Assembly: GCA_030646555.1 (NCBI GenBank)
Contig: JAUSKP010000048.1
Coordinates: 2,236 to 66,235, forward strand
Direction of reading: 5' to 3'
DNA length: 64,000 nucleotides
From: a bacterium
GTDB taxonomy: Bacteria; Patescibacteriota; Minisyncoccia; UBA6257; 02-FULL-45-10c
Shown: positions 5,905-58,845 of the stretch, in pieces
Layout of the letters: each line of letters starts with the position of its first letter
How positions within the stretch are numbered: position 1 is the first letter of the stretch
The notes under the pieces: generated by a model
The model's database searches: none
The model's input: the letters and a program-made list of their open reading frames with translations, nothing else
Told to the model about the DNA's origin: nothing
Made by a program: the position numbers and the translations under genes

Positions 5905-6414
5905 ATGATAAAAAAAGCTGTAAAAAAGGAAACAACTAAAAAGGAGCCCGTAGTTAAAAAAGTTGCCATAAAATCAGCGGTTGTTAAACCGGTGATTGTT
6001 AAAAAGGAAGAGAAAGCGGTTTCAAAGGGCAGATATATTGAAACGGTTGGAAGAAGAAAAACTTCCATTGCAAGAGTAAGACTCATGATTAATGAGTCCG
6101 GCATTAAGATCAATGGAAAGGACTATAAAGATTATTTGAGGTTGTTAAAACTCCAAGAGATTATAATCGCGCCTTTAGCGATTTTGGAATTAAGAGATAA
6201 GCATGGGTTTACTGTTGTTGTGAGCGGTGGCGGAATATTTTCACAAGCCGAAGCCATTAGGCACGGAATTACAAGGGCTCTGATCAAATTAAATGCTGAA
6301 TTTAGAAAGAGGCTTAAAAAATACGGCTTTATTACCAGGGATTCAAGAATGGTAGAAAGAAAGAAACCGGGCCTTAAAAAGGCAAGAAAAGCTCCGCAAT
6401 GGGCCAAGAGATAA
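5905..6414 (+). CDS. rpsI: 30S ribosomal protein S9 with Lys-rich N-terminal extension
   Basis: GRRKTSIARVRL...VVVSGGG..QAEAIRHGITRAL...KKPGLKKARKAPQWAKR. ATG 5905 is preferred over the TTG at 5893 that overlaps the rplM stop. Confidence 0.85.
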   Translation: MIKKAVKKETTKKEPVVKKVAIKSAVVKPVIVKKEEKAVSKGRYIETVGRRKTSIARVRLMINESGIKINGKDYKDYLRLLKLQEIIIAPLAILELRDKHGFTVVVSGGGIFSQAEAIRHGITRALIKLNAEFRKRLKKYGFITRDSRMVERKKPGLKKARKAPQWAKR

Positions 6415-19721: not shown

Positions 19722-19858
19722 TGGATCCCGCACATAACAAAGATAATTAATTTGTATGTGCAGATTCAAAAATAAAGTAATAAAGTCGTTTAAAATAATA
19801 ATTAATAAAAACAGAGAGTAAGAAAGCTTTGTTTTCAAATCTTTGTTATGTGCGGGAT
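19722..19858. repeat. perfect 20-bp inverted repeat (ATCCCGCACATAACAAAGAT / ATCTTTGTTATGTGCGGGAT) flanking ~97 nt of AT-rich DNA
   Basis: Arms at 19722-19741 and 19839-19858. The right arm overlaps the first possible start codon of the SIMPL gene. Confidence 0.7.
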
Positions 19859-20624
19859 GGATAATAATTTAGAATCATTAAAAAAATATTTTTGGCCTAT
19901 TTTAAACATATTATTAATAGTTTTGGTGATTTTGGGCATATTTTCAGTTAGCGCGTTGCGCCGGTATGTTGATACCACTTCTTCAAATCGCACGATCTCT
20001 GTTTCAGCTGAAGGCAAAACTGTGGTTACTCCGGACATAGCTAAGATTAATTTTTCTGTTGTGACCGAAGGCGCCGATACCGTTAAAATATCCGAAGAAA
20101 ATATTAAGAAAATGAATAAGGCCATTGATTTTGTAAAGTCGCAGGGGATCGGATCAAAAGATATCCAAACGGCAGGATACAGCCTTTCTCCAAAATATGA
20201 ATACAACGAAGATAAGAGGGAAAGTTTCATTAGCGGCTACACATTAACCCAGACCATCTATATTCAGATCCGTGATTTTTCAAAGATTAGCGGCATTTTA
20301 GGCGCGTTGCCCGGACTCGGCGTTAACAACATAAGCTCCCTGTCTTTTGCCATAGAAAACCAAGATGAAGCTTTGAAAGTTGCGCGTGATCAGGCTTTTG
20401 AGAAAGCTTTTGTAAAAGCCAGAGAAATGGCAAAACAAAATGGAGTAAGAATTAAAAGAGTGGTCACTTTTTCCGATTATCAAAACAATTACCCAATCTA
20501 CGCTAAAACAATGAGTTATGGAATCGGTGGAGGAGCGACCGATGAAGCAGTTCGGGCACCATCAATTGAGCCGGGTAGCCAAGAAGTGACCGTAAATGTG
20601 AGCATAACCTACGAAATAGATTAA
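19857..20624 (+). CDS. SIMPL (DUF541) domain periplasmic protein
   Basis: N-terminal TM/signal, then ISVSAEGK..V.PD.A...FSV..E.....A...N...M..A...VK..G....DIQT..YS..P.Y. Start at ATG 19857 because ATG 19848 lies inside the inverted-repeat arm. Confidence 0.65.
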   Translation: MDNNLESLKKYFWPILNILLIVLVILGIFSVSALRRYVDTTSSNRTISVSAEGKTVVTPDIAKINFSVVTEGADTVKISEENIKKMNKAIDFVKSQGIGSKDIQTAGYSLSPKYEYNEDKRESFISGYTLTQTIYIQIRDFSKISGILGALPGLGVNNISSLSFAIENQDEALKVARDQAFEKAFVKAREMAKQNGVRIKRVVTFSDYQNNYPIYAKTMSYGIGGGATDEAVRAPSIEPGSQEVTVNVSITYEID

Positions 20625-32192: not shown

Positions 32193-32201
32193 TCTTTTTT
32201 C

Positions 32202-32352
32202 TGTCATTCCGCACTTGTCGCCGAAGTCATCGCTATGCGAGATCTGGCGAAGCCAGACAATCTATCTATCTGTCATTGCGAGGGCTTTGGCCCGCGGCAA
32301 TCTATCTTATTATGGATTGGATTGCCACGTCGCGGACTCCTCGCAATGACAG
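32202..32352. repeat. composite palindromic element (A-long, B, inverted B) immediately 3' of lepA
   Basis: TGTCATTCCGCACTTGTCGCCGAAGTCATCGCTATGCGAGATCTGGCGAAGCCAGACAATC, TGTCATTGCGAGGGCTTTGGCCCGCGGCAATC, GATTGCCACGTCGCGGACTCCTCGCAATGACAGA. Confidence 0.8.
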
Positions 32353-32379
32353 AGAATATGATAAAATTAGAGGATAATA

Positions 32380-33015: not shown

Positions 33016-33047
33016 CTGAAAAATGATACTATGAATATATGGCAGTT

Positions 33048-33067
33048 CCCTGCCTGCCGGCAGGCAG
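33048..33067. repeat. perfect 20-nt palindrome CCTGCCTGCCGGCAGGCAGG downstream of tRNA-Thr
   Basis: Self-complementary; possible tRNA 3' processing or terminator hairpin. Confidence 0.5.
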
Positions 33068-33164
33068 GAATTCTGGCAGGGGGCTCCGAAATAAAAAAAC
33101 AAATGACAAATTTCTAATATCTAATCAAATCCAAAATTCAAACAACAAAATTTTTAAACAAGAG

Positions 33165-33257
33165 TGTCATTCCCGCGAAAGCGGGAATCCAGAAAACCTA
33201 GATTCCGCATCCCTCCGCCGCAAGGCTTCGGACGGGCAAGCAAGTGCGGAATGACAG
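33165..33257. repeat. composite palindromic element (A fwd + A-long rev with internal C hairpin) upstream of prfB
   Basis: TGTCATTCCCGCGAAAGCGGGAATCC ... GATTCCGCATCCCTCCGCCGCAAGGCTTCGGACGGGCAAGCAAGTGCGGAATGACAGA. Confidence 0.8.
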
Positions 33258-33344
33258 AATATTTTTTTTAAACATTAGACATTTAATATTAGATATTGAT
33301 TAAAAATTGTAAATTAGAAATTAAAAATTGTTTTAGTAAATTAT

Positions 33345-57320: not shown

Positions 57321-57812
57321 TTATTTGGTAAAAAATTCAAAAAATCGTTCTCGAAAAAAAATAAATAATGTCGCTCCTGACCCAATAATAAAACTTGAAA
57401 CAACCGAGGCGGTATAACCATATTCTCTCGCACACGCCTCAATAAAATACAGTGGCTTGATAAAATCCCTTCCCCTCCAATCAGTTGTTAGAGTGGTATT
57501 TCTATTATTAGCGTCGAGTGGTATGAGTAATTCTTTTTTTATGGCTTTATCAATCAAATCATCTATCTTTTTCCACTGTATTCTAACCAAATTTGTTCCA
57601 TATTCTGTTGCCTGTGTCGGATATTTACCACTTATACATTGATACCATCTGCGTATTGTTGATTTCCAATCTTCATAAAAGTTTTTTTCATGTGCAAGAT
57701 GTATTCTAAAATATGAACGACTTATATTGTCGTTAAACCAATTCGGGGCATTACCATCTTTCGGCCTGTTCGGACGTGTAAAATACCACATTAACCACCA
57801 AAGTTTTATCAT
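57321..57812 (-). CDS. hypothetical protein, AT-rich and Trp-rich
   Basis: 163-aa ORF between rnhA and rnpB; no motif recognised. Confidence 0.4.
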   Translation of the reverse strand: MIKLWWLMWYFTRPNRPKDGNAPNWFNDNISRSYFRIHLAHEKNFYEDWKSTIRRWYQCISGKYPTQATEYGTNLVRIQWKKIDDLIDKAIKKELLIPLDANNRNTTLTTDWRGRDFIKPLYFIEACAREYGYTASVVSSFIIGSGATLFIFFRERFFEFFTK

Positions 57813-57895
57813 AATACTTATTCTACTCCAAAGACATAATTTTTCAATAATTTTTGTATTACTTATGTTTATGGTATAGCCGCTAATTACAATTT

Positions 57896-57924
57896 ATTGA
57901 AATAAACTCCATAATATGTTATAG
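57896..57924 (+). promoter_or_regulatory. sigma70-type promoter for RNase P RNA
   Basis: TTGAAA-17 nt-TATAGT, positioned about 16 nt upstream of the P1 5' strand. Confidence 0.55.
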
Positions 57925-57940
57925 TATTTTTGTTGGCAGT

Positions 57941-58578
57941 TTAGACAGCAGCCGTGATCCGCCTTCGCTAAAGCTATGGCGGACAACGGAGGAAAGTCCG
58001 GACACTCCTCCGATGCAAATCGGAGAGCAGGGTAGCGGGTAACCCCCGTCCAGGACTCTATTTCGATAATAATTCCTAAACGCGTTGCCAGGATAAGTTG
58101 AAAATTTCAAGGCTTGCCGACAAGCCAGTGGATGATTCCACGGCTTGGAGGCATAACACAGAAATTTTCAAGTTAGACCGCAAACCTCCGGGATACAGCC
58201 AATTTTATTTATAACTGCGTTGGTCGTCGGAAATGTAGAATCATCTACTAATTTCCTCCTCCCGCCTGGTTCTAAATAAAATTGGCTAGTATCGCGTTGG
58301 AAACTATTATCGAAATAGAGTCCGATAGTAATATAGAGGTGCGAGCAGAAACGTCTTGTTTTGAAAAGAACAAGGAGACCTGATCTCAAGCTAATCGGTC
58401 TAGTTCAGATATAGAGATAAAAAATCTGAAATGAAACGGCTAAATCCTTACCCGAGTGCAAGGCCGTACTGCGCAAGCAGTGTGCCGCAAGAGCCATTAA
58501 GCAATTAGTGGCCCAGATAAATTGCTGTTATCTATCCGTTAAAAGACAGAACAGAATCCGGCTTATTAGCTGCCAACA
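57941..58578 (+). ncRNA. rnpB: RNase P RNA (bacterial type A) with large internal expansion
   Basis: P4 strands GGAGGAAAGTCCGGAC and ACAGAATCCGGCTTA. P1 pairing GTTGGCAGTT/AGCTGCCAAC. P18-like AGCCATTAAGCAATTAGTGGCCCAGATAAATTGCTG. A ~280-nt AT-rich insertion is closed by the 19-bp helix GGACTCTATTTCGATAATA (58042-58060) / TATTATCGAAATAGAGTCC (58304-58322). Confidence 0.75.
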
Positions 58579-58581
58579 ACA

Positions 58582-58612
58582 AATCCCCTCGCAAGAGGGG
58601 ATTTTGTTTTCT
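58582..58612 (+). terminator. rho-independent terminator after rnpB
   Basis: AATCCCCTC-gcaa-GAGGGGATT followed by TTGTTTTCTT. Confidence 0.75.
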
Positions 58613-58635
58613 TAATTAAAAAGAAAACCCGCTCC

Positions 58636-58845
58636 CTAGTGATAGGGGCGGGTTTTTATCTTTGCCCGGTTTACGAGAATGCTCGCACCGGAATAAAGAA
58701 AGAACAGAGAAATGAGCACTGTATTTATGTTCCGCAGTTCGCGAATGTAAATATGCATTTTAACACCGAGATAAGCCTCTGCCATGAGACCGCACACAGC
58801 GAAGCAGAACAATCCCCAGCAAACATCCTTCTGTTTATTAGACAT
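58636..58845 (-). CDS. hypothetical small membrane protein (2 TM)
   Basis: 69 aa; RBS AGGAGA 5 nt upstream of the ATG; hairpin terminator at 58626-58652 overlapping the stop. Confidence 0.4.
   Translation of the reverse strand: MSNKQKDVCWGLFCFAVCGLMAEAYLGVKMHIYIRELRNINTVLISLFFLYSGASILVNRAKIKTRPYH

Follow-up and report, generated by a model that had tools for sequence, protein, structure and literature searches.

The window analyzed here, by which we mean the whole 64-kb stretch of DNA, comes from a CPR (Patescibacteria) metagenome assembly and carries a class A RNase P RNA gene (rnpB; 57933-58577, forward strand, 645 nt) that is interrupted by a palindromic element of 271 nt. The best explanation, which we consider probable, is that the window holds a recent copy of a dispersed family of non-coding palindromic elements, inserted in the vestigial P9 arm of an rnpB gene that is apparently functional. 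The insertion is recent, the ribozyme core is intact, and the element belongs to a family with a conserved structure, made up of a terminal stem of 19-31 bp and two long hairpin arms, that is undescribed in Rfam. Literature searches turned up no earlier account of an element of this kind, either in rnpB or in CPR.

The interrupted gene is a class A RNase P RNA

The gene, its signals and the position of the insert are as follows:

57897-57925, forward strand: rnpB promoter (TTGAAA, a 17-nt spacer and a TG-extended TATAGT; 10/12 matches in a consensus scan)
57933-58052, forward strand: RNase P RNA 5' segment, with P1, P2, P3, the 5' strand of P4 (GGAGGAAAGUCCGGAC), P5, a small extra hairpin, the 5' strand of P7, and P8 with a GUAA loop
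58053-58323, no strand assigned: inserted palindromic element, 271 nt helix to helix, absent in seven syntenic relatives, with copies outside rnpB in loci L019, L021 and L022
58324-58577, forward strand: RNase P RNA 3' segment, with the P9 loop remnant (GAUAGUAAUAU), P10, P11, P12 (58350-58376), P13, P14, P15, P18, and the 3' strands of P4 (ACAGAAUCCGGCUUA), P2 and P1
58581-58611, forward strand: rnpB intrinsic terminator, a 10-bp stem (58581-58604) followed by a T-rich tail

The original prediction had been that this locus encodes an RNase P RNA of about 640 nt with a P1 pairing, both P4 strands, a P18 region, a promoter and a terminator. The call is borne out by synteny, by matches of both flanks of the insert to the Rfam model RF00010 and by a core fold with covariation, the length is in agreement (645 nt versus 353-460 nt in relatives), and all of the listed landmarks were found. 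P1 is formed by UUGGCAG pairing with CUGCCAAC, the P4 strands are GGAGGAAAGUCCGGAC and ACAGAAUCCGGCUUA, the P8 loop is GUAA and the P18 loop is GCAA. Transcription is expected to start near 57932-57933, and the -10 block ATATGTTATAGTATTTT is also kept in two of the relatives (L001 and L003).

The relatives used for comparison were contigs encoding homologues of the window MurC (79-90% identity), which provided seven loci with the common gene order GltX-M23 peptidase-small ORF-MurC-rnpB-RNase H-like-DHH-PGK-MraY. The top-ranking named homologues of the window MurC itself belong to "Patescibacteria group bacterium", Minisyncoccia and Parcubacteria, and the 163-aa ORF upstream of rnpB is identical to NCBI MDO8443145.1 (Q7S81_02735, "MAG: bacterium"). 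We rejected the idea that this ORF travels with the element, as the locus of a homologue (L020) has neither the element nor rnpB. The rnpB genes of the relatives scored 126.6 (L008), 107.8 (L003), 105.1 (L007), 100.7 (L004), 90.5 (L001) and 78.6 bits (L002) against RF00010; these scores cover six loci, and the seventh (L005) has the same rnpB sequence as L004. The window gene shares its MurC-rnpB-RNaseH neighborhood with the four relatives that pass the threshold (L003, L004, L007 and L008).

When the insert is removed, the remaining core of 373 nt is 90.9% identical to that of L001, with many of the differences being compensatory, and it keeps every column that is invariant among five relatives. 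RNAalifold analysis of the core together with five relatives gave a class A consensus fold with 96 pairs, compensatory changes being present in 24 of these, so that the class A helix set (P1-P5, P7-P15 and P18) is present and backed by covariation. The 5' segment aligns with the relatives, compensatory pairs included, as does the 3' segment, with covariation of its own. Judged from these comparisons, the window gene looks maintained, not decayed, and is apparently an orthologous, functional class A RNase P RNA gene, and we infer that the interrupted ribozyme would be active.

The intact gene had no RF00010 match at the gathering score (100 bits), and in E-value mode Rfam returned a distorted alignment of the 3' part only (48.1 bits). 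Scored alone, both flanks are recognized: the 5' flank (57925-58052) gave a 3'-truncated match of 17.1 bits (E 5.8e-4) to model positions 1-91 of 367, and the 3' flank gave 48.1 bits (E 3.9e-14). The window rnpB falls below the Rfam threshold because of the insert and CPR divergence together.

The insert occupies P9 and is absent from relatives

All seven syntenic rnpB loci lack the insert and have an empty site, and because none of the relatives carries it, we conclude that the insertion of 272 nt is recent. That value is the net gain relative to the empty site of L001, which reads CCCCCATCAATTAGTAATATAGAGG, while the window reads CCCCCGTCCA, 271 nt of insert, and GATAGTAATATAGAGG. The junctions are known from one assembly; a Logan contig of the same strain (L006) ends at 58439, short of the insert. 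The strain is also represented in metagenome run SRR13727527. Exactly as had been predicted, the segment is bracketed by an inverted repeat: GGACTCTATTTCGATAATA at 58053-58071 recurs as its perfect 19-nt reverse complement at 58305-58323, and the repeat extends to 27 nt at 89% complementarity. The 19-nt repeat has no further match in the window at three or fewer mismatches (0.04 expected by chance), and no second copy of the element was found within the 64-kb window. Folded alone, the insert is strongly structured (-122.7 kcal/mol; z = -12.5 versus shuffles).

The insert lies directly 3' of P8 (GCGGGUAACCCCCGU) and 5' of P10/P11 (AGAGGUGCGAGCAGAAAC), that is, at the P9 arm of the P7-P10 four-way junction, and the RF00010 alignment of the 5' flank breaks at model position 91, inside the P9 5' strand. 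P9 is vestigial across the clade, consisting of a 3-bp stem and a GCGA loop in L002, L007 and L008 and of less still in L001 and L004. P12 (58350-58376, GUCUUGUUUUGAAAAGAACAAGGAGAC) is downstream of the insert, intact and conserved. The P9 position and the intact downstream P12 therefore overturn the earlier placement of the segment between the P10-12 and P13/14 regions. Its description as AT-rich is accurate relative to the ribozyme core (41.7 versus 47.4% GC) and fails relative to the window as a whole (37.6% GC).

A different expansion was observed in L002, whose rnpB has a 125-nt rod-like hairpin after P5 that is unrelated to the window insert. Taken together, the window insert and the L002 rod mean that peripheral rnpB hairpins have gained sequence at least twice in the clade.

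Homologues of the element are dispersed outside rnpB

Copies in other genomes were located using a spurious minus-strand ORF of the insert (58168-58389) as a probe, because gene callers repeat the same spurious call elsewhere. This ORF led to the protein P0121, and an exhaustive search with P0121 identified P0125, P0126 and P0127. The DNA behind three of these proteins contained full homologues of the insert alone, without similarity to the rnpB flanks. The full copies are on metagenome contigs (L019, L021 and L022) and have 75-91% identity to the insert. P0128, which differs little from P0126, has been recorded on 17 contigs.

The copy in L019 (JGI 3300014204) is the most similar, at 86% identity in BLAST over the whole insert and 91% over aligned columns. 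It lies between divergent tRNA-Arg and tRNA-Pro genes, with its end 2-3 nt before tRNA-Pro, and it has an extra 20-nt GC palindrome nested in one of its hairpin arms (arm A, below). The same nested palindrome recurs in the window at 33046-33068. A mini hairpin that consists of the element ends only is located ~30 nt upstream of the L019 copy, both being within 400 nt. We also noted a 13-nt match between the rnpB promoter region of the window (57894-57906) and this mini hairpin, which we discarded as being at chance level (3 versus 1.5 expected).

The other two copies are in ribosomal protein operons. That of L021 (74% identity) fills the rpsS-rplV spacer, and that of L022 (75% identity) fills the rplB-rpsS spacer, where its reading frame overlaps the rpsS start. 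In both, operon transcription reads the strand complementary to the one that rnpB transcription reads in the window. The L021 and L022 hosts are close relatives (ribosomal proteins 80-96% identical), the spacers differ and the copies are 80% identical to each other; we therefore conclude that the two copies were placed independently.

Searches based on the ends of the element were uninformative. Exact scans with the 19-nt end repeat produced chance matches only (three in genome contigs and three in metagenome contigs), as did a scan of viral contigs with a 17-mer of the repeat (four matches). The genome matches that were inspected are coding sequence for the peptide GLYFDN, and none of the end-repeat matches extends beyond ~25 nt. 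No match was found by blastn of the element against phage and plasmid collections, or in scans of viral sequences for its conserved internal blocks.

The copies share a fold maintained by compensatory changes

The four copies (window, L019, L021 and L022) could be aligned over their full length and have one common fold, which in the window has the following parts, with a 2-bp hairpin between the two arms:

58053-58083, forward strand: terminal stem, 5' strand; perfect pairing over the first 19 nt; extended P9; 7 compensatory pairs among the four copies
58084-58184, forward strand: arm A, a long hairpin of variable sequence with an invariant internal GGAGG (58147-58151); 12 pairs with compensatory changes (helices 2 and 4)
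58192-58293, forward strand: arm B, a long hairpin with the strongest conservation of all parts, in which CCUCCUC (58255-58261) is invariant
58294-58323, forward strand: terminal stem, 3' strand, pairing with 58053-58083

The terminal stems of the four copies are:

Window: 5' GGACTCTATTTCGATAATA, 3' TATTATCGAAATAGAGTCC
L019: 5' TAAACCTATCTTGATAATA, 3' TATTATCAATATAGGTTTT
L021: 5' GGAACCTATACCAATAATA, 3' TATTATTGGCATAGGTTCT
L022: 5' GAAACCTATCCCAATAATA, 3' TATTATTGGGATAGGTTTC

The consensus fold comprises 96 pairs, with 96.3% of cells paired. Both sides have changed in 22 of the 96 pairs, versus 11.1 +/- 2.1 in column shuffles (0/500), and sliding the partners by 1-3 columns left 0-9 two-sided changes. 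The fold has thus been kept by compensatory changes while the sequence drifted to ~75% identity. The conservation is uneven: arm B has a 72-nt block that is identical between the window and L019, and the GGAGG of arm A and the CCUCCUC of arm B are not only invariant but mutually complementary. A promoter-like TTGGCT-17-TATTAT (58282-58310) runs from the 3' end of arm B into the terminal stem and points outward.

The two strands fold nearly alike: the window gives -122.7 versus -122.3 kcal/mol, and the two strands of every copy come within 1-3.5 kcal/mol of each other. Both the folding energies and a test of G-U versus A-C pairs on the two strands gave differences too small to tell selection on the RNA from selection on the DNA. 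Three G-U pairs are common to the copies, all on one strand, and the copy-specific wobble pairs tend toward the transcribed strand, with counts that are small. No Rfam match to the element was obtained at permissive thresholds in three of the four loci, and as a positive control the same search found a group I intron in L019 at 78.8 bits.

How the element may have spread and how rnpB may bear it

The element resembles a MITE in its terminal inverted repeats (19 nt perfect, 27 nt at 89%), its length of 271 nt and its lack of a credible ORF. Comparison of the flank sequences showed none of the four copies to have a target-site duplication, and a transposase that might partner the element was not found, for which reasons we use the MITE label as an analogy only; the single copy in 64 kb likewise speaks against a classical MITE. 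With ERIC/REP-like repeats the element has in common its location in transcribed spacers, its occurrence in both orientations and the preservation of pairing through compensatory changes. The internally deleted mini copy, the nested palindrome and the near-equal folding of the two strands favor a palindromic repeat that acts at the DNA level. We propose that the element would have spread as DNA, in the manner of a MITE, ERIC or RPE-type selfish palindrome, with insertion possibly being targeted to hairpin loops.

Within the RNase P RNA, the terminal helix of the element would replace or extend P9 in the four-way junction and project away from the catalytic core. The insertion is clean and its site is a peripheral hairpin that was already degenerate. 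The insert would be tolerated, and the ribozyme would still fold, because the paired ends of the element form a helix that extends P9; palindromic inserts elsewhere are tolerated in the same manner.

Alternative explanations

Two of the alternatives concern what the insert does, or what becomes of it, once transcribed. The near-perfect duplex of 19-27 bp is a plausible RNase III substrate and the mature RNA may therefore be trimmed into two pieces, in the manner of the intervening sequences (IVSs) of rRNA: RNase III would cut the terminal stem, the arms would be discarded, and the two pieces (~125 and ~260 nt) would be held together by P1, P2, P4, P5, P7 and P10. The location in a hairpin loop of a stable RNA is as expected for such a sequence, as is the sporadic presence among close relatives that is also characteristic of rRNA IVSs. 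The stem, perfect over 19 bp and 89% paired over 27 bp, is of adequate length, since RNase III cuts stems of 19-27 bp, and RNase P RNA is able to reassemble from fragments in vitro. Against this, the 64-kb window has no RNase III gene or signature, and we know of no natural split bacterial RNase P RNA. We regard processing of this kind as possible and, on balance, unlikely; it bears on what becomes of the insert and does not conflict with the best explanation of where the insert came from. It is more doubtful that the element has a function of its own as a structured RNA, such as a protein-binding or catalytic module, for which the RNase P RNA serves as an expression scaffold. The strong covariation would be accounted for, as would the 72-nt block shared with L019, the invariant GGAGG and CCUCCUC (which could pair between the arms) and the three G-U pairs conserved on one strand; moreover, all known sites are in transcription units of the translation apparatus (rnpB, pre-tRNA and the S10 operon). 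However, opposite strands are transcribed in the window and on the tRNA-Pro side of L019 versus L021 and L022, both strands fold equally well, there is no consistent promoter belonging to the element, the comparison covers four sequences only, and the invariant motifs give no covariation evidence. The conservation of arm B and of GGAGG/CCUCCUC beyond the needs of pairing, together with the shared G-U pairs, is a hint of a sequence-specific RNA- or protein-binding role as opposed to plain selfish DNA. A wider form of this idea, that the element represents a new structured RNA class under RNA-level selection which spreads via highly expressed transcripts of the CPR translation apparatus, and which in the window is either a working RNase P domain or is cut out to leave a two-piece ribozyme, appears to us decidedly unlikely. 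If the inserted domain does have a function of its own, as the original prediction had envisaged, that function would be the element's and not that of RNase P.

The remaining alternatives concern origin and are far less credible than these. That the segment might be an intron, self-splicing (group I-like) or otherwise spliced to leave an RNase P RNA of normal length, had been suggested, and introns are known from the rRNA and tRNA genes of CPR bacteria (PMC8172020). L019 has a group I intron elsewhere and the excised unit, GGACUC...GAGUCCG, would end in G. Nevertheless, no RF00028 or group II match was obtained in 57800-58750 (E up to 10), the last nucleotide of the 5' exon would be A instead of U, a 19-bp helix that joins the ends is not group I architecture, and the other copies are in intergenic spacers in both orientations, all of which make an intron very improbable. 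An expansion segment that grew in place, as an extreme P9 or P12 extension serving RNase P, is hardly credible. The unrelated 125-nt rod at another hairpin of L002 and the large helix extensions known in CPR RNase P RNAs (PMC8172020) are in its favor, but the insert is missing from the closest relative (L001, in spite of a core that is 90.9% identical) and the same element, at 75-91% identity, is found in contexts other than rnpB. The extreme P12 expansion that had been offered is thus wrong in origin as well as in position, which is P9. We give just as little credence to the idea that the strand opposite rnpB encodes a small protein (82-93 aa), whose gene would be in sense with the S10 operon in L021 and L022. 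Three of the four copies have a frame of 88-93 codons that stays open from one end of the element to the other, it fits neatly between ribosomal protein genes, with the overlap of the rpsS start in L022, and L021 and L022 differ by 6 synonymous and 8 non-synonymous codons. On the other hand, the variable sites show no codon periodicity (24, 27 and 33 at the first, second and third positions), and the copies disagree in frame over their C-terminal halves, L019 being also locally frame-shifted relative to L021/L022. In the window the frame is interrupted, a Pfam search gave no match, other frames are likewise open (69-76 codons), and 96% of the sequence is base-paired with compensatory changes. 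We share the earlier doubt that the minus-strand ORF at 58168-58389 is a gene, and on this sequence evidence the element is treated as non-coding; selection that keeps ribosomes moving through the operon copies is a possible side effect. Of the three possibilities raised at the outset, it is the inserted mobile element that the evidence supports.

Relationship to known repeats and insertions

The inserted palindrome has counterparts among several classes of bacterial repeat. ERIC/IRU, Correia (NEMIS) and RUP elements are non-coding imperfect palindromes with terminal inverted repeats that are found in transcribed spacers in either orientation with compensatory pairing, and Correia elements are reported to have promoter-like sequence near one end. 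The element described here has all of those traits, including a promoter-like hexamer pair near one end. Unlike them, it is larger (~270 nt), is built as a branched stem with two arms and not as a single hairpin, has no target-site duplication that could be seen, and in the window sits inside a structural RNA gene. Rickettsia palindromic elements (RPEs) are selfish sequences of ~100-150 bp that are best known within protein-coding genes. The likeness is that of a palindrome within a functional gene, at a point where the product can accommodate an additional surface module; the two are unrelated in sequence, and RPEs are shorter.

Insertions within stable RNAs offer a second set of comparisons. 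The IVSs of 23S and 16S rRNA (in Salmonella, Leptospira, Campylobacter and Coxiella) replace a peripheral hairpin loop, have a long terminal stem and are sporadic. The window insert likewise occupies a peripheral hairpin of a stable RNA, has a long terminal stem and is sporadic among relatives; it differs in that the host is rnpB, that the element is also present in mRNA spacers and beside a tRNA gene, and that excision by RNase III is a candidate event. In cyanobacteria, short tandem repeats (STRRs) that are found throughout the genome have also inserted in P12 of the RNase P RNA, where they are reportedly kept without loss of activity. Both cases involve repeat sequence embedded in a peripheral rnpB helix, but STRRs are tandem heptamer repeats in P12 whereas the element is a single structured palindrome of 272 nt in P9.

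A previous study (Lui, Nielsen and Arkin 2021, PMC8172020) found that many CPR RNase P RNAs score below Rfam thresholds and show "large extensions of helices". Of its 35 circular CPR genomes, 10 required a relaxation of the RF00010 thresholds, and the extensions, for example an extended P15, were described as structural divergence. The window gene is like those RNAs in belonging to the same phylum-level group, in being missed by RF00010 and in having a large extension. In contrast to the extensions of that study, the one in the window is a discrete insertion that close relatives lack and that has homologous copies outside rnpB.

Implications for CPR structural RNAs

The window gene, which the curated Rfam thresholds miss, explains one route by which CPR rnpB genes escape annotation. 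It fits the published picture of CPR RNase P RNAs (PMC8172020) and adds a cause, a discrete dispersed element, to it; at least some of the "helix extensions" in CPR structural RNAs are discrete dispersed insertions and not gradual divergence. The element represents a new family with a conserved structure, for which an alignment and a consensus fold are now available for a covariance-model census of CPR genomes. P9 emerges as a natural permissive site in the ribozyme. If the two-piece reading were true, this would be the first natural two-piece bacterial RNase P RNA, and the finding raises the question of whether a bacterial RNase P stays active while carrying a 272-nt passenger, or when divided into two pieces.

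The region around rnpB

An open reading frame lies between rnpB, the RNase P RNA gene that carries the 271-nt palindromic element, and the RNase H-like gene:

57321-57812 of the window, minus strand: 163-aa ORF

This ORF was missing in all seven syntenic relatives. Its product, identical to NCBI MDO8443145.1, has a hydrophobic C-terminus, contains no Pfam domain and has two homologues at 48-49% identity. We considered a link between the ORF and the rnpB insert and rejected it, since the element is missing from the contig encoding a homologue (L020).

A relative with an 85% identical MurC (L002) has a different rnpB expansion, a rod-like structure of ~125 nt (6266-6395, minus strand) that is unrelated to the element and stands in place of the small hairpin after P5. 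The folding energy of the rod was -57.4 kcal/mol (z -10.0) for the sense strand versus -49.6 for the antisense strand, and this stronger predicted folding of the sense strand points to G-U pairing in the RNA.

Small palindromes and inverted repeats

A GC palindrome, CCTGCCTGCCGGCAGGCAGG, is located immediately after tRNA-Thr at window 33046-33068, and an identical copy is nested within arm A, one of the two hairpin arms, of the L019 element (L019:241-260). In these genomes the tips of hairpins seem to be places into which small palindromes move. On both sides of the tRNA-Gly/tRNA-Thr pair of the window (32199-32353 and 33165-33259) there are several GC palindromes that resemble REP sequences, of the types GTCATTCCCGCGAAAGCGGGAAT and TGTCATTGCGAGG, and among them is a perfect 19-nt inverted repeat with 1023 nt between its arms. 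Elsewhere in the window there is an intergenic perfect 20-nt inverted repeat, ATCCCGCACATAACAAAGAT (19725-19744 / 19839-19858, 94 nt between arms), whose 3' arm reaches into the ATG of ORF 19848-20624.

The element copies outside rnpB

In L019, where the element lies between tRNA-Arg and tRNA-Pro, these features were identified, the first of them also in the window:

window 58282-58310 and L019:88-117 (minus strand): promoter-like TTGGCT-17/18-TATTAT, pointing outward at the 3' end of the element
L019:1215-1461, plus strand: group I intron (RF00028), 78.8 bits

The TATTAT is kept in all four copies of the element. The -10 of the L019 site ends ~15 nt before tRNA-Pro, with a predicted start site ~10 nt upstream, and the site could drive tRNA-Pro. 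A mini hairpin (L019:395-440), lying upstream of the full copy at a distance of ~30 nt, has arms that correspond to the ends of the element (TCTATTTCAATAATAATTCC ... TTATTGAAATA) and looks like an internally deleted derivative of it. The TTGAAA -35 box of the promoter-like site before the full copy comes from the 3' arm of this hairpin. Adjacent to the group I intron, the minus strand carries a small ORF (734-1108) for an HNH endonuclease.

In both S10-operon copies (L021:422-682 and L022:213-494) the entire element is an open frame, read in the direction of the operon, and the stop codon of the L022 frame shares bases with the start of rpsS (ATGA). The open frame could reflect selection for ribosome read-through of the structure together with maintained translational coupling.
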